Below, piece after piece: positions 644 through 6,867 of a stretch of DNA of 6,867 nucleotides. Both the position numbers and the translations under genes were made by a program. Source of the stretch: a virus (Duplodnaviria > Heunggongvirae > Uroviricota > Caudoviricetes); the IMG/VR virus record IMGVR_UViG_2690316345_000004. One strand, written 5' to 3'. Numbering within the stretch: position 1 is the first letter of the stretch; each line of letters opens with the position of its first letter. The notes beneath the pieces are model-generated. The model was not told the origin of the DNA. It saw nothing but the letters and a program-made list of their open reading frames with translations, and did not search any database.

Positions 644-1072
644 ATGCTAAAAACTAGGCTTATCACTGATTACATCAATTCATTAGTAGGTCAGGAGTTC
701 GTTCAAGGCGAGAATGATTGCAATTTAATTGCATGTAAGATCATCGATATTCTCGCTGGCACTGACCTATATAATTCTCTTTATAAAAAATATTCAACGA
801 AAGAAGAAGGCTTGAAAGTCTGTAAAGAACTTAGTGGATATACCAATATCCTCCAGCCTATCAAAGAACATTTTAAATTAGTTACTGATGATTTACAGGA
901 CGGCGACCTATTGATCCGCGATCACAAATTAGGAAACCGTAAGTATTACTCCGTGACTCCTTATTATTCCGGCTATGGACTCGTTACCGAAGATGGAATC
1001 TGGACGACCAAGCCGATTTACGAAATTGATTATAACGATGCTTATCGCTTTGGGGGTGATTTATGGGCGTAG
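644..1072 (+). CDS. putative tail assembly protein with NlpC/P60-like Cys...His arrangement (lambda gpK-like C-terminal domain)
   Basis: ATG 644 is preceded by GGAGGT (631-636) at 7-nt spacing. The ORF-track start at TTG 401 would overlap the previous gene by about 200 nt and is rejected. The product has a Cys in a GENDCNLIAC context and a downstream GDLLIRDH segment, reminiscent of NlpC/P60 catalytic Cys/His motifs. Stop TAG 1070-1072 overlaps the next start (ATGGGCGTAG). Confidence 0.6.
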   Translation: MLKTRLITDYINSLVGQEFVQGENDCNLIACKIIDILAGTDLYNSLYKKYSTKEEGLKVCKELSGYTNILQPIKEHFKLVTDDLQDGDLLIRDHKLGNRKYYSVTPYYSGYGLVTEDGIWTTKPIYEIDYNDAYRFGGDLWA

Positions 1073-4000
1073 AAGTATTGGTCGGCGCGGTTATTGCTGG
1101 TGCGTCGGCTGGGATGGCTGCTGCTTCCGTGGCGGCAATTTCAACATTAGCGGCTGTTGCTATCGGTATTGGTGCTGGTGCATTGTCTTTGATTGCTTCC
1201 ACTGTAGGCGCACCGAAAACACCGAAGGTACAAAGCCCAGATAACGCGGTGACATTAGGAACATCAAACGATCCGAAAGCGGTGATACCAGTTATTTTCG
1301 GTGTTACTCGCACTGGTACAAACTGTGTTTACAAAGCAATTTCTAAGAAAGAAAACAATAAGTTAGTGCAAGTATTTTCTGTAGCCGAGGGTGAAATCGA
1401 CCATTACAAAGCACTCTTTATTGATAATAAAAATGTTCTTGTTGGTAAGAACATGACGATCCGTGATGGTATTCTCGATAAGGGCAACATTAAAGAAGAA
1501 TACCGTAAAGTGTTAGAAGTCGAGTTCCGCACGGGTAAGAATCCTAACACCGCATTGTCACTGGCAAAAACTCATTTAGGCTCAGACTGGACCGATGCTT
1601 ACAAGGGTAACGGCATTGCAACCATGTGTATTGTGTTACGTCGTGATGACAAATCTCTTGCTGCTGGTGTTGATATTCTCCAGCCAAATAGCCAGGTAGC
1701 AGTAGACGTTTGCGGCCTTAAAATCCGTAACCTTGAAACCAATGCTATTGAGGCTAGCACCAACGGCGTGGACCAGATTTTCCACTACCTAACAAATGAA
1801 AAATATGGTCTTAGTGTACCAATTGAAAACATCAACGTTGATTCATTCCTGAAAGTACGTTCTCAAGTTCGCCAGATGAATTTGCACTCTAACGGTGCAT
1901 GTGATCCGAACGCCAGCTTTAAAGAGAACTTGACCGGATTGATGCAGACTTTCGGCGGGGTGATGTTTGAATCCTTTGGACGTATTACTCTGAAACTGGA
2001 TGCTCCTGATATTGTTAAGCATACCTTCAATGAAGACAATATCATGATGGGTAAAGTTAACCTGAAAACAGGTGGCACTAACGGTTATTTCAATACCATT
2101 AACGCAATCTATCAGGAACCATCAATCGACTATTCAGAGCAAATGCTACGTTATCCGGCTGATGCTGAAAATGATGCTACTATCCGTCAAGATGGGCGCA
2201 TTATTGCTAAAGACGTAGAATATCGCTTTGTTAAAGATGAAAACCAGATTGACAAATTAGCGAGCATTGAACGAAATAAATCTCGTATTACTCAGGTTAT
2301 CAACTTCACTACTACCGATGCATTCAGCGCGGAAGTCTGGGACGTTATCAGCGTTACCCACGATGAATTGAAACTGAATAATTCACTTTGGCGTATTATC
2401 TCTATTGAGCGTAGCATTGATTCTGGTATTGCTGGTATTTTGTCTATCACCGCCACAGAATATAATTCTCAGATTTACACAGATCTGGATTATGCGGCTA
2501 AACCGGACAATAGACCAAGTGGTTTACCGGATTCAATGACAGTACAGAAGCCTACTAATTTCAGAATTAAGGCAACTGGCGAGACGATTTACGGTAAAAA
2601 TGTTACTTTGACATGGGATGCACCGGAAGATTTTAACCGCTACGGCTTCCAGATTGATTACCGTGTAAGCGGATCACCTAACTGGATTAAGCTCGGTCAG
2701 ACTTCACAGCAAATTTTCAATGTCAATGCACTGGCTAAAGATCGCTCCTACGATTACCGAGTTTGTGCTTTCGGTATCATCGCGCGATCCGATTGGGTAG
2801 AACTGATTAACCAGAATCCGACTGTTACCTATGAATTGCCGACTCCGGTTATTCGAATCAAAAATCAGGGTAGCACGCCAGGAACTTTCGAAGGTAATGA
2901 TCTGATTATCGAATGGGATAACCAGCAAGGCTTAGATGTTGAGATCAACGGTGAAACTAACAAGTTTAGTGACCTGTTTGAAGCATACATTATCAAGGTG
3001 ACTAACAAGGCTGGTAAGTCTATTCAGTACCGTACCCGCGATCCTGAATCATGGACTTATACGCTTGATATGAACCAGTTTAACGGCCTTTCGCGTCAAC
3101 TGACGGTAGAAGTATCAGCTAAGGGATATAACAACTCAGAGAGCGCCCCAGCGCGTTTAGTGGCTATCAACCCACAACATAAGCCAATGAAAGGTTTTAG
3201 TGCGCGTGGTGGCTTTAATACTGCGTTTGTTAGCTGGGCGGATGACGTAGAACATGACTATGCAGGGTCAATCATCCAGTATGCAACCGACAACACTTTC
3301 TCAGATGCAAGGGCAGTAAGCACGAATAGTGTTAGCCATACTTCCTTTGATATTGCTGACGGTGATTATTATATCCGTGGTGCTCACTACGATATTTTCG
3401 GTATGGATGATGCTGTTTGGTCTGAACCGTATTTCATGCAAATGAAATCTACCATTAGCTGGGACGATCAGGACAAAGAAGCACTGGAAGACCTGATTGG
3501 TTTACAAGATCGCTTAGATGAAACCATCGCTGATGCTATTGCTCAAGCTGGCGCTAATGCCGATGCTAAAATTGATGCAATGCATAAGCAAATCACTACC
3601 GAGACGGGTAAAACTGTTCAAGCCTCAGCCGATACCTTAAAGAGTCTGATTGCTTCTGGTGATAAGGCAAGTTCAACTAAGATTGATCAGGTTAAAGCTG
3701 AACTGAAAGGCGATATCACCAAAGAAGTTAGCGCATCTGCTACTACCCTGAAACAAGCAATTGCAACCAGTGAGGCAGCAAGCGCAAGTAAGATTGACCA
3801 AGTTCGGGTAGAAATGGATGGCAAGATTGCTGGTGTGAATCAGGAAGCAGATGTAAAAATCGATGCTTTGAAAGGAACCATTAACAGCAAATACAATCTG
3901 GCAGTTAATGCAGATGGTCGCGTGGCTGGCATTCACATGAGCGCAACCAACGATCCGGCACAACCGACTAAAATCATCTTTACGGCTGATAAAATTGCTG

Positions 4001-4815
4001 TAGCTCCGCAGAACGGGACCGATGTTTGCCCGTTTGGTATCGAAGGTAACAAGGTTTATCTCGATAATGCGATGATTCGTAATGCTGCAATTGGCACAGC
4101 CCAGATTAATGATGCGGCAATTACTACCGCTAAGATCGGAAATGCTGCAATTAACAGCGCGAAGATTCAGGACGGGGCGATCACCAATGCGAAGATCGTA
4201 AACGGCGCAATTGATAATGCTAAAATTGGTAACTATATCCAGTCTTCAAACTGGAACGGATCTACCGGATGGCATATCAACAAGAACGGGTCCGCTACGT
4301 TCATGAACGCTACCGTTAAAGGTAATATCACGGCTGATTCTGGTACTCTGAACAACGTCACGATTAACTCTAGCTGTGTTATTAAGGGTATGCTTGAAGC
4401 TACTCAGGTTAAGGGTGATTTCGTTAAGGTGATTGGTAAGAAATTCCCTCATCGTCAACAAAACTGGCCTGATGGCACTGTTACGGTAAGGGTGGAAGAT
4501 GATCATAAGTTTGATCGCCAAATTGTGATTCCAGCTATTCACCATAACGGGTCTGTTCGTCGTGGCGAAAGTAGTGATCATTGGGACACTTGCCGATTAA
4601 TCGTTAAGAAAAATGGCTCTGTTCTATATGATCGCACGGCTACTTCTGGCAGCATGTACACAGGCGTTATTGACATGCCAGCGGGTAAAGGTGCTGTAAC
4701 GTTAACATTCCAAGTTATTTGTGATGGTGTTAACAACTATAACCCAAGTGCATATATCAGCGATCTAACAGTAATGGTAACTAAAAAAGCCACTACTGGT
4801 ATTACTGTTTCTTAA
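1063..4815 (+). CDS. central tail fiber / host specificity protein, lambda gpJ-like, with a gpI-like N-terminal module
   Basis: 1250-codon ORF with ATG 1063 preceded by GGGGGTGA (1052-1059). The C-terminal ~160 aa (EDDHKFDRQIVIP, IDMPAGKGAVTLTF, DLTVMVTKKATTGITVS) closely resemble the recalled C-terminal receptor-binding region of lambda J (TDDHPFDRQIVV, VDMPAGRGNVILTF, DVQVMVIKKQALGISVV). The middle holds FN3-like beta-sandwich segments and an Ala/Lys/Asp-rich coiled-coil stretch. The first ~95 aa are a Gly/Ala-rich hydrophobic segment followed by APKTPKV...VIPVIFGVTRTG, resembling the C-terminal half of lambda gpI. Confidence 0.92.
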   Translation: MGVEVLVGAVIAGASAGMAAASVAAISTLAAVAIGIGAGALSLIASTVGAPKTPKVQSPDNAVTLGTSNDPKAVIPVIFGVTRTGTNCVYKAISKKENNKLVQVFSVAEGEIDHYKALFIDNKNVLVGKNMTIRDGILDKGNIKEEYRKVLEVEFRTGKNPNTALSLAKTHLGSDWTDAYKGNGIATMCIVLRRDDKSLAAGVDILQPNSQVAVDVCGLKIRNLETNAIEASTNGVDQIFHYLTNEKYGLSVPIENINVDSFLKVRSQVRQMNLHSNGACDPNASFKENLTGLMQTFGGVMFESFGRITLKLDAPDIVKHTFNEDNIMMGKVNLKTGGTNGYFNTINAIYQEPSIDYSEQMLRYPADAENDATIRQDGRIIAKDVEYRFVKDENQIDKLASIERNKSRITQVINFTTTDAFSAEVWDVISVTHDELKLNNSLWRIISIERSIDSGIAGILSITATEYNSQIYTDLDYAAKPDNRPSGLPDSMTVQKPTNFRIKATGETIYGKNVTLTWDAPEDFNRYGFQIDYRVSGSPNWIKLGQTSQQIFNVNALAKDRSYDYRVCAFGIIARSDWVELINQNPTVTYELPTPVIRIKNQGSTPGTFEGNDLIIEWDNQQGLDVEINGETNKFSDLFEAYIIKVTNKAGKSIQYRTRDPESWTYTLDMNQFNGLSRQLTVEVSAKGYNNSESAPARLVAINPQHKPMKGFSARGGFNTAFVSWADDVEHDYAGSIIQYATDNTFSDARAVSTNSVSHTSFDIADGDYYIRGAHYDIFGMDDAVWSEPYFMQMKSTISWDDQDKEALEDLIGLQDRLDETIADAIAQAGANADAKIDAMHKQITTETGKTVQASADTLKSLIASGDKASSTKIDQVKAELKGDITKEVSASATTLKQAIATSEAASASKIDQVRVEMDGKIAGVNQEADVKIDALKGTINSKYNLAVNADGRVAGIHMSATNDPAQPTKIIFTADKIAVAPQNGTDVCPFGIEGNKVYLDNAMIRNAAIGTAQINDAAITTAKIGNAAINSAKIQDGAITNAKIVNGAIDNAKIGNYIQSSNWNGSTGWHINKNGSATFMNATVKGNITADSGTLNNVTINSSCVIKGMLEATQVKGDFVKVIGKKFPHRQQNWPDGTVTVRVEDDHKFDRQIVIPAIHHNGSVRRGESSDHWDTCRLIVKKNGSVLYDRTATSGSMYTGVIDMPAGKGAVTLTFQVICDGVNNYNPSAYISDLTVMVTKKATTGITVS
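4078..4227 (+). repeat. five tandem 30-nt (10-codon) repeats inside the J-like CDS
   Basis: Directly visible: RNAAIGTAQI / NDAAITTAKI / GNAAINSAKI / QDGAITNAKI / VNGAIDNAKI, each encoded by a 30-nt unit (e.g. aatgctgcaatt...aagat[ct]) in head-to-tail register. Confidence 0.85.
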
Positions 4816-4833
4816 AATTTAATTTTAATAATT

Positions 4834-4875
4834 AATCCCGCTTAATTCTTTTGGGTTAGGCGGGATTATTTTTAT
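4834..4875 (+). terminator. putative rho-independent terminator after the tail-fiber gene
   Basis: Inverted repeat aatcccgctt (4834-4843) / aggcgggatt (4858-4867), a 10-bp stem with one G-U pair and a 14-nt loop, followed by ATTTTTAT (4868-4875). It lies 19 nt after the J stop. Confidence 0.55.
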
Positions 4876-4920
4876 CTAAATAATTCTGCCATTAAACTAT
4901 ATAAAAATATCGGGGGCGTA

Positions 4921-5199
4921 ATGACTGAAATTATATATGGCGGTATCGGTGTTATCGCCTTAATTTGTGGTGGATTATGGAGGCTTCACCGAAATCAATT
5001 AGCCACAGAAAATAGATTGTCGAAATTAGAATCCAGCGACGCATTGTTAAACCAGAAGTTTGAGACGATGCAGAATAACCATACTCAGATTGCTGAACGT
5101 GTTTACCAAATGGAACAAACACTACACGGTATAGAGAAGAAAGTGGTTGCGATGGACGCCAAATTTGACCAAGTTCTCGACATACTCAAACAAAAATAA
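4921..5199 (+). CDS. hypothetical membrane-anchored coiled-coil protein (92 aa)
   Basis: ATG 4921 preceded by GGGGG (4912-4916). One N-terminal hydrophobic segment (IIYGGIGVIALICGGLW), a basic flank (RLHRNQ), then a heptad-like helical region. Ends with three in-frame stops TAATAATAA (5197-5205). Confidence 0.7.
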   Translation: MTEIIYGGIGVIALICGGLWRLHRNQLATENRLSKLESSDALLNQKFETMQNNHTQIAERVYQMEQTLHGIEKKVVAMDAKFDQVLDILKQK

Positions 5200-5217
5200 T
5201 AATAAAGGGGTGAATAT

Positions 5218-5388
5218 ATGAAGAATAAACTTAAGAAATATTTTGGTTATCTCTTGATTGTCGCCCTCACTTATAACGTAGCAATTAGACCTCTGCTTAC
5301 GTCCTTTGGGCTTGAACTCCCGGCTATGACCGTGGATGAACAATTGCTCAGGACACTGGCGGGGGTCTTTTCGTTATTAGGGGGCTAA
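5218..5388 (+). CDS. hypothetical small hydrophobic protein (56 aa), absent from the supplied ORF track
   Basis: ATG 5218 preceded by AAAGGGG (5205-5211). Translation: MKNKLKKYFGYLLIVALTYNVAIRPLLTSFGLELPAMTVDEQLLRTLAGVFSLLGG. Lys-rich N-terminus followed by a hydrophobic stretch. Stop TAA 5386-5388 lies 1 nt before the next ATG (TAACATG), indicating translational coupling; it fills the gap between two well-supported genes. Confidence 0.5.
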   Translation: MKNKLKKYFGYLLIVALTYNVAIRPLLTSFGLELPAMTVDEQLLRTLAGVFSLLGG

Positions 5389-5389
5389 C

Positions 5390-5995
5390 ATGGCTAATCC
5401 AATAATCACATCCAATATTGATAAAGTAAAAAAAGATATCAAGAGTTGGAAACAGAAAGCTAGTAATAGCTTTCATAGGGATTTGGGTTTAGCGGTCATA
5501 GATGAGCGGGTAAAGTTGCAGAAGAAAGTCAATTCAAGGATAGATCGACCGACCAAGTTCACACAGAAAGCGGTCAATTCATACAACCGGATACGCTCAA
5601 GCGGTAAAACGTCTTACCATAGTGTTTTCATCATGAAGAATCAGGAAAAATACTTAAAATATTACTTTGAAGGTGGTAATAATATCGAGAAATTTGTTCC
5701 TGTAACTGATGACCGAACTAACCAGTTTGGTAACATTCCACAACTCAGAAACGGTAAGAAAATAGGGAAGTATGTAACCACAAAATCTAAGACTGGTAAA
5801 ATACTGCTTCTCGATCCATCCGTTAAAGCCGACATGAACAACAAGAAAAAGCTAGGGAAGCGACTTGTTGCAGTGTTGAAGAAAACAGACCGTAGTAACA
5901 TCATGGGTAGTTGGAAAGATAATGAGAAAACGATGAAGAAGAATATCCAGAAGAAGATGAAAAAGCACTTCATGGGTAAAATCAACTTCGTTTAA
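5390..5995 (+). CDS. hypothetical lysine-rich basic protein (201 aa)
   Basis: ATG 5390 preceded by AGGGGG (5378-5383). Very Lys-rich, especially at the C-terminus (KKNIQKKMKKHFMGKINFV), with no obvious hydrophobic segment. The antisense ORF 5662-5985 is a low-complexity mirror of the Lys codons and is rejected. Confidence 0.75.
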   Translation: MANPIITSNIDKVKKDIKSWKQKASNSFHRDLGLAVIDERVKLQKKVNSRIDRPTKFTQKAVNSYNRIRSSGKTSYHSVFIMKNQEKYLKYYFEGGNNIEKFVPVTDDRTNQFGNIPQLRNGKKIGKYVTTKSKTGKILLLDPSVKADMNNKKKLGKRLVAVLKKTDRSNIMGSWKDNEKTMKKNIQKKMKKHFMGKINFV

Positions 5996-6003
5996 TCCAT
6001 AAA

Positions 6004-6029
6004 TACCCTCATAGAATCTTATGGGGGTA
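6004..6029 (+). promoter_or_regulatory. hairpin sequestering the Shine-Dalgarno of the 6034 gene
   Basis: taccctcata (6004-6013) pairs with tatgggggta (6020-6029): a 10-bp stem with one G-U pair and a 6-nt loop. The GGGGG at 6023-6027 is the RBS for ATG 6034. No T-tract follows, so it is not a terminator. Confidence 0.35.
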
Positions 6030-6033
6030 TAAC

Positions 6034-6381
6034 ATGGCTAAAAATATTTTCACTGAATTTCCTACTTATCCGGTCGACCAGCTTTCCGGTATTTTTATCA
6101 ATGGCATTAGCCCTGAATCAATGACACTTGATTACGAGGCGAAGAGAGTAAAGCATAAACAATTCAAGCAAATGATCCGCGATGATGGTAACGGGTTAGT
6201 GTTTTGTGTTGCGACACTCGCTAAACGTCCTAAATACCGCTTCCGTGTAGGGCAGGAGATTGATGTAGTTAACCCTTACAACTTCAATTGTATTGGTGAT
6301 GCACGAGCGGTATGCATAGGCACAGCACCTTATTACATTAAGGGACTCAGATTTATTGGGTATCTTATGCAATACATCTAA
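6034..6381 (+). CDS. hypothetical protein (115 aa)
   Basis: ATG 6034 with GGGGG 7 nt upstream. Ends TAA 6379-6381, immediately followed by the RBS of the next gene. No family recognised from sequence. Confidence 0.7.
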   Translation: MAKNIFTEFPTYPVDQLSGIFINGISPESMTLDYEAKRVKHKQFKQMIRDDGNGLVFCVATLAKRPKYRFRVGQEIDVVNPYNFNCIGDARAVCIGTAPYYIKGLRFIGYLMQYI

Positions 6382-6391
6382 AGGGGGTAAT

Positions 6392-6745
6392 ATGTTAAGC
6401 AAGCATTTTTCTCGCAAGGAATTTAAATGTAAATGCGGAAAATGTGATTATGATACTATCGACGCTGAACTGCTGGTAATTCTTGAGGATGTACGCGAAC
6501 ACTTCGGGAAACCAGTAATTATTAACAGCGGGAACCGTTGTCCGACTCATAATAAGAATGTAGGCGGTGCAACCAATAGCTACCATGTTCGAGGCCGTGC
6601 GGTTGATATTGTAGTGAAAGGCGTCTCGCCTGATATTGTCCATGCTTATCTTGATGGGAAATATCCTACCAAGTATGGCTTAGGAAAGTATAAAACCTTC
6701 ACGCACATTGATAGTCGTTCAACGAAATCACGCTGGCATGGATAA
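6392..6745 (+). CDS. peptidase M15 family zinc metallopeptidase (Peptidase_M15_3 / YcbK-like fold), putative endolysin
   Basis: ATG 6392 preceded by AGGGGG (6382-6387); the TTG 6356 start in the ORF track is rejected. Motifs INSGNRCPTHNKNVGGATNSYHVRGRAVD and FTHID match the His-x6-Asp ... His zinc-binding signature of M15 peptidases. No signal peptide or SAR-like N-terminus. Confidence 0.85.
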   Translation: MLSKHFSRKEFKCKCGKCDYDTIDAELLVILEDVREHFGKPVIINSGNRCPTHNKNVGGATNSYHVRGRAVDIVVKGVSPDIVHAYLDGKYPTKYGLGKYKTFTHIDSRSTKSRWHG

Positions 6746-6816
6746 AATTAAAGCGCCTCTAGTGGGTAATGCCGATCAGTTAAGGATCAGTTGACCGATC
6801 CAGTGGCTGTGTAAGA

Positions 6817-6850
6817 ATCCGGAAACGCTCACTTGTTTCCGGATTTTTTT
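6817..6850 (+). terminator. rho-independent terminator
   Basis: Perfect 10-bp inverted repeat atccggaaac (6817-6826) / gtttccggat (6835-6844) with an 8-nt loop, followed by a run of seven T (6844-6850). Confidence 0.7.
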
Positions 6851-6867
6851 ATGCACATTGGACAGGC

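Follow-up and report, generated by a model that had tools for sequence, protein, structure and literature searches.

The window, by which we mean the whole 6,867-nt stretch of DNA that was analyzed, forms the right end of the cluster of structural genes in an E. coli prophage and covers tail and lysis genes. The same region is present in approximately 54 complete E. coli genomes. Two insertion sequence ends bound it. The end of an IS1 copy, which matches IS1A in thousands of plasmids, occupies positions 1-114 and truncates a DUF2163 tail gene, the remnant of which extends to 597; intact prophages align with the window from position 115 onward only. At the other side, the end of an IS4 copy (6763-6867; 99% match to IS4 transposase regions) lies approximately 17 nt past the endolysin stop codon, and prophage homology ends at 6766. 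The window copy of orf201, the gene under study, belongs to this IS1/IS4-disrupted prophage and may no longer be used. In the intact copy of RMDEC332, genes for the terminase, portal, a protease-capsid fusion, fibre, tube, chaperone, and tape measure are located upstream, and genes for a UvsW-like helicase and then a serine recombinase are located downstream. All window genes and sequence elements described below are on the plus strand.

The DUF6950 tail protein gene (644-1072; Pfam PF22262, PGAP coordinates in RMDEC332) overlaps by 10 nt with the gene for a J-like central tail tip or host-specificity protein (1063-4815). The J-like protein has 1250 aa and a hydrophobic, Ala/Gly-rich N-terminus, and matched Pfam Phage_Tail_Tip and Ig_GpJ_C as well as phrog_31 and phrog_2148. 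A terminator-like hairpin found by scanning (4833-4877; 16-bp stem and T-run) lies between the J gene and the cluster that runs from orf92 to the endolysin gene. It folds at -27 kcal/mol, and a hairpin with a different stem sequence occurs at the equivalent site in Salmonella, Pantoea, and phage DCP80. No convincing sigma-70 promoter was found upstream of orf92, where promoter-like sites were no commoner than in shuffled sequence, and an Rfam scan of the window returned no RNA family.

The first gene of the cluster, orf92 (4921-5199), is an ORF whose product combines a transmembrane helix at the N-terminus with a coiled coil. It gave weak coiled-coil Pfam matches and a match to phrog_12015 at 4e-5, its homologs (92, 105, and 153 aa) come after J in all four lineages compared, and its dN/dS is approximately 0.1. 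The product could be a holin-like, i-spanin-like, or exclusion protein. The next ORF, orf56 (5218-5388), codes for a small membrane peptide of 56 aa. The N-terminus of the peptide is basic, a single clear hydrophobic helix is present (Kyte-Doolittle maximum 1.87), and only a weak phrog_2024 match was obtained for it. An o-spanin role of orf56 was rejected because Cys and lipobox are missing from all orthologs; in addition, no ORF with a lipobox was found within 4800-6800. orf56 and orf92 code for the only membrane proteins near the endolysin gene, and the simplest guess is that they act in lysis as candidate holin or antiholin. Downstream of orf201, orf115 (6034-6381) is an ORF coding for a conserved soluble protein that is always located 3' of the candidate tail completion protein (TCP) gene, with homologs in Salmonella, Providencia, Pantoea, and DCP80 and no match in PHROG, Pfam, NCBIfam, PADLOC, or PDB. 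A gpU-like tail terminator, suggested by analogy with the Z-U order of lambda, was rejected for orf115 (hhalign probability 0.1%; no PHROG or PDB match). After a spacing of 10 nt, orf115 is followed by the endolysin gene (6392-6745; Peptidase_M15_3, 117 aa from the PGAP ATG), which matched Pfam PF08291 at 3.7e-28 and phrog_894 at 2e-45. The Shine-Dalgarno (SD) sequence and ATG of the endolysin gene were read in the sequence, and the PGAP start was taken from RMDEC332.

The candidate TCP gene, orf201 (5390-5995), is an ORF of 201 aa. A lysine-rich, strongly basic product had been described for it in an earlier sequence-only reading of this DNA, and our calculations agree: the pI computed from the sequence is 10.37, the net charge is +32, and the GRAVY is -0.88, with lysine accounting for 18.9% of residues compared with 6.5-10.9% in the remaining genes of the window. 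The observation that no catalytic motif is recognizable also holds, since no catalytic or other domain was found directly in the product itself in Pfam (E ≤ 0.1), and NCBIfam and PADLOC gave no match to it. The product is without a transmembrane segment, signal peptide, or lipobox, and the Kyte-Doolittle maximum of its Pantoea ortholog is 0.42. The K-rich C-terminal tail is a correct description of composition, with seven Lys/Arg and no acidic residue among the last 20, but this segment is predicted to be a structured helix (175-197) within the fold.

The gene had also been called the most A/T-rich part of the window. It does have the lowest GC content among the window genes (0.370), but the minimum of the window is elsewhere: the 606-nt stretch at 4684 has a GC content of 0.348, and the 606-nt stretch of orf201 itself ranks approximately 165th of 6262 for low GC. 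The intergenic region between J and orf92, at 0.276, is also below the value of orf201. Leaving out its 38 AAA/AAG codons brings the gene to 42.3% GC, close to the 41.8% average of the window, and the GC3 of the gene, at 0.453, is not low. The low GC content is thus caused by the 38 lysine codons, so the lysine richness and the A/T richness of orf201 count as one observation. Foreign origin of the gene as the source of its low GC was rejected, because the lysine codons account for it.

A Shine-Dalgarno-like AGGGGG (5379-5384), read from the sequence, is located 5 nt before the ATG of orf201 and falls within the final codons of orf56. It is kept in the E. coli and Salmonella relatives, and GGGG and AAGGA are found in Pantoea and DCP80, respectively. 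The dN/dS was approximately 0.15 for orf201 and 0.16-0.29 for orf56, indicating that purifying selection acts on both. orf201 is a genuine gene.

Sequence family and predicted fold of the orf201 product

The direct match of the orf201 product to phrog_1924 had an E-value of 0.0027 (18.6 bits), and a word-indexed search returned only ten close relatives. An exhaustive search with a profile of those ten retrieved 330 cluster representatives at E ≤ 1e-3, nearly all of them 180-230 aa long, from which 103 were sampled and scanned individually. The great majority of the sample (84/103) matched phrog_1924, "minor tail protein", with a best E-value of 3.8e-52; phrog_27, "tail completion or Neck1", was matched by 38/103 (best 3.4e-11) and Pfam Minor_tail_Z by 14/103. 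The gathering threshold of PF06763 is 23.9 bits, and some distant relatives reach 24.1-24.3 bits, with the orf201 product falling below it. An intermediate sequence, P0024, was found by the profile of the window clade at 1.8e-13, and it matched phrog_1924 at 7e-51, phrog_27 at 6.6e-10 over its full length, and Minor_tail_Z with 24.3 bits (cut-off 23.9). Lambda gpZ itself matches both phrog_27 and phrog_1924. Among the closest relatives, the syntenic Pantoea ortholog matched phrog_1924 at 2.3e-7, and the 227-aa E. coli allele gave no match to it.

The link to gpZ was visible at the level of the whole family. When the family was aligned with a gpZ profile in hhalign, the probability was 74% (E 2.7e-5), and the alignment was collinear over 176 columns. 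The family HMM found 20/20 gpZ sequences (best 20.7 bits), compared with a maximum of 10.2 bits for 1000 shuffles. The shallow clade profile of orf201 failed to reach gpZ, and the comparison with the single lambda gpZ sequence, at 22% probability, was not significant. Sequence and profile searches of PDB returned nothing useful for orf201. A profile scan of genome contigs detected one weak locus, and in viral contigs five loci were detected, two of which are near-identical prophages. Strong basicity is a family trait, as all 103 sampled relatives have a pI of 9.2-11.9 (median pI 10.7, median net charge +28). Members of the family are annotated as "minor tail protein" in F10, MD8, R4C, and RcCronus. 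Remote homology, which the sequence-only reading had put forward as a check, links the family to phrog_1924, phrog_27, Minor_tail_Z, and gpZ.

Structure prediction, the second check put forward, yielded a confident AF2 model with a TCP-like fold. The model from the 103-sequence alignment had a pLDDT of 89.2 and a pTM of 0.79, and an earlier model from a 10-sequence alignment was unusable (pLDDT 51). It consists of a helix (10-50), a beta domain (62-168), and a second helix (175-197), which corresponds to the characteristic TCP fold, where a beta hairpin or domain lies between a long bent helix at the N-terminus and a long helix at the C-terminus. Published TCP models have the same layout, with an extra beta domain in lambda gpZ (PMC11661146). 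The best match of the orf201 model among solved structures was the TCP of 80alpha (PDB 9mu2 chain P). A Foldseek search of PDB with the model gave no match, and its matches in BFVD were tail components, HK97 gp10 family proteins, and type I neck proteins.

Because the orf201 product has no significant direct match, its assignment as a TCP depends on transitive family-level links and on the predicted structure. The sequence-only reading had regarded the protein as one of unknown function and had named a match to a tail completion protein as evidence to the contrary. Such a match was found in the family-level profiles and in the fold shared with the 80alpha TCP, so the unknown-function reading is overturned on its own terms.

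Gene position and allele co-variation

Textbook TCP genes are located between the head-completion and tail-terminator genes (PMC11784142). orf201 is not in this canonical slot; the J-like tip gene precedes it, and the endolysin gene comes further downstream. The canonical slot of the prophage contains only a 96-aa and a 140-aa ORF, neither of which has a TCP match. When the ORFs between the capsid and tail-tube genes were scanned against PHROG and Pfam, nothing resembling a TCP emerged; a PDB sequence search with the 96-aa and 140-aa neck ORFs gave no match, and no second TCP candidate was detected among the structural genes of the prophage. Similar positions are found in relatives. The family member of Pseudomonas phage F10 is the last gene, right after the holin, endolysin, and spanin genes, and those of roseophage R4C and Rhodobacter phage RcCronus are the last genes before the genome end. 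A metagenomic relative is encoded immediately upstream of a gene that was assigned, by position and size only, as a probable terminase. The F10, R4C, and RcCronus placements indicate that the PHROG 1924 branch is habitually located outside the neck cluster, and the non-canonical placement of orf201 is common in this branch.

The neighbourhood of orf201 might instead suggest a non-structural accessory role in the lysis cassette, such as regulating or partnering the two membrane proteins and the M15 endolysin, and the gene does lie amid the membrane-protein and endolysin genes, 3' of the hairpin that separates this cluster from J. We regard this as very unlikely. The F10 member, directly after holin, endolysin, and spanin, would fit such a role, but the R4C and RcCronus members have no adjacent lysis gene, and the Pantoea module leads into tail chaperone and tape-measure genes, with no endolysin there. 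Moreover, the fold and family of orf201 are those of a virion protein, and its hydrophilic product has none of the membrane or export signals that were looked for.

Additional evidence on the role of orf201 came from its alleles in a sample of 16 prophage copies. The TCP gene is an allelic hotspot with four types among these copies: type A (201 aa), type B (199 aa, approximately 60% identical to A), type C (187 aa, from Salmonella), and type D (227 aa, approximately 32% identical to the other types). TCP type D occurs with tape-measure/TAC-G (chaperone G) type C at 10/10 loci, and TCP types A-C occur with tape-measure type A or B at 6/6 loci. Every E. coli copy has the same type of each gene between them (Dit, DUF2163, DUF6950, J, orf92, and orf56), and these invariant genes separate TCP and tape measure by approximately 6.5 kb. 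The Mantel r between TCP and tape-measure distances was 0.92, and 0.90 when background divergence was controlled for, with few independent events behind these values; for the intervening genes against TCP it was 0.48-0.67. The MTP (tube) and endolysin alleles reassort independently of TCP and tape measure. The correspondence does not extend to a fine scale, since TCP types A and B are 60% identical and their tape-measure N-termini are 83-93% identical, and a reverse mismatch was also found, with tape-measure N-terminus types C and D 68% identical and the TCPs 96-99% identical. The co-variation is what would be expected if the TCP must fit the tape measure, with very few independent replacements contributing to it.

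These results also bear on the location of the protein in the virion. A TCP-family protein could work at the distal end of the tail, as T5 p143 does, maybe with J and the small membrane proteins in envelope penetration. This is an unlikely location for the orf201 product, and the evidence is divided. orf201 directly follows the tip gene J, away from the neck genes, and the module of J, the TM-coiled-coil protein, the TM peptide, TCP, and orf115 is kept in four lineages; F10, R4C, and RcCronus members, however, are not beside tip genes and precede the terminase at the end of the genome. Position in the tail is often reflected in tail gene order, and the nominal TCP of T5 is located at the tip, but the T5 authors set the p143 fold apart from other TCPs and doubt its membership (PMC11784142). 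The ejection of DNA outside the cell by TCP-less SPP1 (PMC11099176) would be compatible with a distal role, whereas the orf201 model matches the neck-lumen TCP of 80alpha. In addition, the TCP alleles track the tape measure and not J (Mantel r 0.48) or DUF6950 (partial r 0.03). Since the TCP of T5 is at the tip and lambda gpZ has not been seen, a distal location stays a live rival to the neck lumen.

The pairing of orf201 with orf56

The TAA of orf56 (5386-5388) is followed by a single C and then by the ATG of orf201 at 5390, so that the 1-nt distance between the two genes is as previously described. Translational coupling had been deduced from it, but the AGGGGG inside orf56 gives independent initiation of orf201 the same likelihood as obligatory coupling. 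Closely spaced genes with an SD inside the upstream one are commonplace in phage late operons.

The orf56-orf201 pair is present in four lineages, at a distance of 1 nt in E. coli and in Salmonella, 2 nt in Pantoea, and 8 nt in DCP80, and the orf56 homologs of Salmonella, Pantoea, and DCP80 are in the same place. The four lineages share the order J, hairpin, TM-coiled-coil protein, 56-57-aa TM peptide, gpZ-like protein, and a protein of approximately 100-115 aa; in 2/4 lineages, an endonuclease VII gene is inserted. The pair is thus conserved in this enterobacterial clade, and orf56 is a real gene. The pairing does not extend to the wider family, where an Rz-like spanin gene precedes the F10 member and other genes precede those of R4C and the metagenomic relatives; the conservation of the gene pair in related genomes is thus confined to the four enterobacterial lineages.

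The two products had been proposed to be made in a fixed ratio and to act together, and this was not supported. The same orf56 protein, WP_001406248.1, is encoded without any change beside TCP alleles of only approximately 32% mutual identity, which argues against a specific complex between peptide and TCP, and each peptide/TCP junction in the four lineages has its own SD. The partnership is doubtful because the pair is missing outside the clade, the junctions have their own SDs, the spacing is ordinary for this operon (a 10-nt overlap and a 10-nt gap occur elsewhere in it), and orf56 is invariant. orf56 is a conserved operon neighbour of orf201 in the enterobacterial clade and probably no specific partner of it.

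The proposed partnership was part of a broader view in which the orf201 product is a general nucleic-acid or membrane-surface binder, such as a histone-like or host-takeover protein, in a stoichiometric complex with orf56. The extreme basicity of the protein and the tight pairing kept in four enterobacterial lineages are the observations in its favor. However, the basicity is common to lambda gpZ, the pairing is lost outside the clade and combines one orf56 with divergent TCP alleles, and the family, fold, and annotated relatives all indicate a tail protein, with no match of the orf201 product to DNA-binding or defence families. Such a general binder is therefore highly improbable. What is retained from this view is a contact with nucleic acid, which is plausible by analogy, because the solved TCP directs its positive face toward the DNA end; no support was found for membrane-surface binding.

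Proposed role and comparison with known systems

Taken together, our results indicate that orf201 very probably encodes the TCP of the prophage, a minor virion protein of the lambda gpZ/HK97 gp10/SPP1 gp16.1/80alpha gp51 superfamily in the PHROG 1924 branch. It is a distant and previously unannotated relative of gpZ, an ordinary structural gene in an unusual place. Its product also agrees with the superfamily in being soluble, strongly basic, and small, as the members, from long-tailed phages, have approximately 110-255 aa. The lysine richness of its product is the charge requirement of the family met by Lys in place of Arg, and this makes the gene A-rich.

The counterparts in 80alpha, SPP1, and lambda suggest that the TCP would join the tail late, in one or a few copies, and would lie in the lumen of the head-tail junction, attached there to the trimeric tape measure through its N-termini. 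The positive surface of the protein would face the end of the packaged DNA, and possibly also the acidic tube wall; in the solved TCP, a positively charged face is turned to the end of the packaged DNA (PMC11661146). In this way the TCP would position and hold the DNA end, so that ejection is timed after tape-measure exit and channel formation. Particles without it would look normal and be largely non-infectious. Similarly, lambda particles without TCP look normal and are approximately 500-fold less infectious, and SPP1 particles without TCP eject their DNA outside the cell (PMC11099176). For TCPs in general, loss gives such particles or a defect in the joining of head and tail. Where lambda-type TCPs are located in the virion has never been observed, and lambda gpZ is not in any map. 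With the lambda TCP unseen and that of T5 at the tip, the neck-lumen mechanism is extrapolated from one Gram-positive phage.

A further view concerns the five-gene unit after J (orf92, orf56, the gpZ-like gene, orf115, and the endolysin gene), which is conserved from E. coli to Pantoea and in a large lytic-phage record. These genes could form a dedicated DNA-delivery set, in which the gpZ-like protein, matched to the tape measure, would exit the virion with it, and the small membrane proteins and orf115 would help to form or gate an inner-membrane conduit. We judge this to be quite improbable. If true, it would be the first link of a TCP to membrane components, and the neighbours of orf201 would be more than lysis or moron genes.

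TCPs are essential, yet they are the least understood components of long phage tails. The present assignment is chiefly useful for annotation: genomes of E. coli, Shigella, Salmonella, and Pantoea list orf201, the 227-aa allele, and their relatives as "hypothetical protein", and these proteins fall outside all Pfam and NCBIfam models. In addition, three to four deeply divergent TCP alleles in a near-identical tail module represent a natural experiment, and because the alleles are matched to the tape-measure type, the proposed contact between TCP and tape measure is testable by allele swaps. TCP genes can sit outside the neck cluster, which matters for phage classifiers that use neck gene order. 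The locus as a whole is of modest interest, for its non-canonical gene position, the correspondence between allele cassette and tape measure, the conservation of orf56, orf92, and orf115, and the IS1/IS4-disrupted copy.

Lambda gpZ (PF06763, PHROG 27) resembles the orf201 product in length (192 versus 201 aa), in its extreme basicity (pI 12.0 and net charge +37 versus pI 10.4 and +32), and in predicted layout, and both belong to siphophages with a J-type tip. The two proteins share no direct similarity (BLASTP E 0.83), and the charge of gpZ comes from Arg (14.6%), whereas that of the orf201 product comes from Lys. The Z gene is located between FII and U, and orf201 is located after J beside lysis genes and is preceded by orf56. 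Staphylococcus phage 80alpha gp51 (HK97 gp10 family; 9mu2_P) is the only TCP with a solved structure (PMC11661146). It is approximately half the size of the orf201 product, is without the large beta domain, and has approximately 10% identity to it; unlike the phage of orf201, 80alpha has a Gram-positive host, headful packaging, and a TCP gene at the canonical neck position.

T5 p143 has the same superfamily assignment as the orf201 product and is likewise a minor tail protein, and its position in the virion departs from the textbook expectation. As a monomer, it attaches laterally to the baseplate hub, from which it departs when the receptor is bound. The arrangement is the reverse of that of orf201: the p143 gene is in the canonical neck slot and its protein is at the tail tip, whereas the orf201 gene is at the tip end and the fold of its product is neck-lumen-like. 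The closest known systems also include the PHROG 1924 members of Pseudomonas phages F10 (gp63), MD8, and JBD68, Dinoroseobacter phage R4C (gp49), and Rhodobacter phage RcCronus (gp44), which belong to the same sequence family and were reached by the window-clade profile at E-values of approximately 1e-12, with 20-30% identity to orf201. Their genes are the last before the genome end and the terminase and lack the neighbouring 56-aa peptide and orf115, but their products are of approximately 200-250 aa and very basic and, like that of orf201, are encoded away from the neck genes.

Allelic exchange of the TCP gene

In the related loci L001 (an intact prophage copy in E. coli RMDEC332), L019-L029, and L004-L007, the TCP gene, which codes for the gpZ-like, probable tail completion protein (orf201; window 5390-5995), was found to be swapped as a precise cassette, with four allele types lying between near-identical flanks. 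In the same loci, the TCP type agrees with the type of the tape-measure and tail chaperone G (TAC-G) genes, which are located approximately 8 kb upstream, while the genes in between are invariant. The tube protein, the endolysin, and two neck ORFs each follow an independent allele pattern of their own.

Insertions and gene order in the tail module

The copy of the module in the window is bracketed by an IS1 end (1-114) at one edge and an IS4 end (6763-6867) at the other. The IS1 end cuts the DUF2163 tail gene, of which about 57 N-terminal codons are gone, and the IS4 end lies 17 nt downstream of the endolysin stop codon. No IS was present at either site in the intact relatives L001, L013, and L014. 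Because the module is bracketed by the two IS ends and the DUF2163 gene is cut, the prophage of the window is probably defective. All five genes of the cluster from orf92 to the endolysin are intact in the window.

Homing-type endonuclease genes of different kinds also interrupt the tail module, and their insertion point varies by relative. They were located in Pantoea sp. MBLJ3 (L003, 9371-9853), the Escherichia phage DCP80 record (L002, 7337-7804), L007 (4410-5183), L023 (12058-12828), L028 (12058-12831), and L027 (1484-2521). Among them, an endonuclease VII gene is inserted between the orf92-like and orf56-like genes, a NUMOD3 gene between DUF2163 and DUF6950, and a GIY-YIG gene upstream of the fibre gene. 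In addition, the gene order of the module is permuted in Pantoea sp. MBLJ3 (JSUT01000012.1, 4885-13883), in which the first block consists of DUF6950, J, the small ORFs, and the gpZ-like and orf115-like genes, and the genes for chaperones G and T and for the tape measure come after it. The tube gene is upstream of DUF6950.

Small genes between the tip gene and the endolysin

A stable hairpin directly follows the stop codon of the J-like tip gene in the window (4833-4877), L004 (9423-9527), L003 (9040-9078), and L002 (6816-6849). Its position is kept in five lineages with differing stem sequences, and a downstream T-run is found in E. coli and Salmonella only. The hairpin may mark off the orf92-to-endolysin cluster, acting either as a terminator or to stabilize RNA.

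The tip and TCP genes are separated by the genes for two conserved small membrane proteins. The orf92 product (4921-5199) has an N-terminal TM helix and a coiled coil, and its length is 92 aa in the window, 105 in Pantoea, and 153 in DCP80. The orf56 product (5218-5388) is a peptide of 56-57 aa across relatives. Neither contains a lipobox. They are the sole candidates for a holin-like role near the endolysin, but a role in exclusion or an association with the virion is just as possible.

An orf115-like gene (window 6034-6381; L003 10561-10878; L002 8536-8835), coding for a soluble protein of 99-119 aa, always comes after the gene for the gpZ-like protein; this holds for E. coli, Salmonella, Providencia, Pantoea, and DCP80. 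The orf115 protein had no matches in PHROGs, Pfam, NCBIfam, PADLOC, or PDB, and does not resemble lambda gpU. In Pantoea, the genes directly downstream of the orf115-like gene are those for the tail chaperones and the tape measure, and this arrangement hints at a tail role for orf115.

Relatives of mixed gene content and the J-like tip protein

In the prophage family represented by L001 and L019-L029, the recombinase is a large serine recombinase, and the prophage ends lie at one of two places in the chromosome, beside truncated hicB/ydcR or beside truncated ycdX/csg. The tail tip of this family is lambda-like, and it is combined with genes of T4 type (UvsW, UvsY, the gp38 adhesin, and a gp34-like fibre). 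DCP80 (PQ671644.1, 141 kb) is classed in Straboviridae/Tevenvirinae and carries motA, yet its genes for the tape measure, Dit, DUF2163, DUF6950, J, and a gpZ-like protein make up a module of the siphophage type. It is either an unusual mosaic or a chimeric or misclassified record.

The N-terminus of the J-like protein (window 1063-1220) is a hydrophobic Ala/Gly/Ile-rich stretch of approximately 50 residues, beginning MGVEVLVGAVIAGASAGMAAASVAAISTLAAVAIGIGAGALSLIAS, which is conserved in Pantoea (L003, 5302) and DCP80 (L002, 3057). This segment could serve to insert into a membrane or to fill the lumen, and it distinguishes the J-like protein of the window from lambda gpJ, which lacks it.
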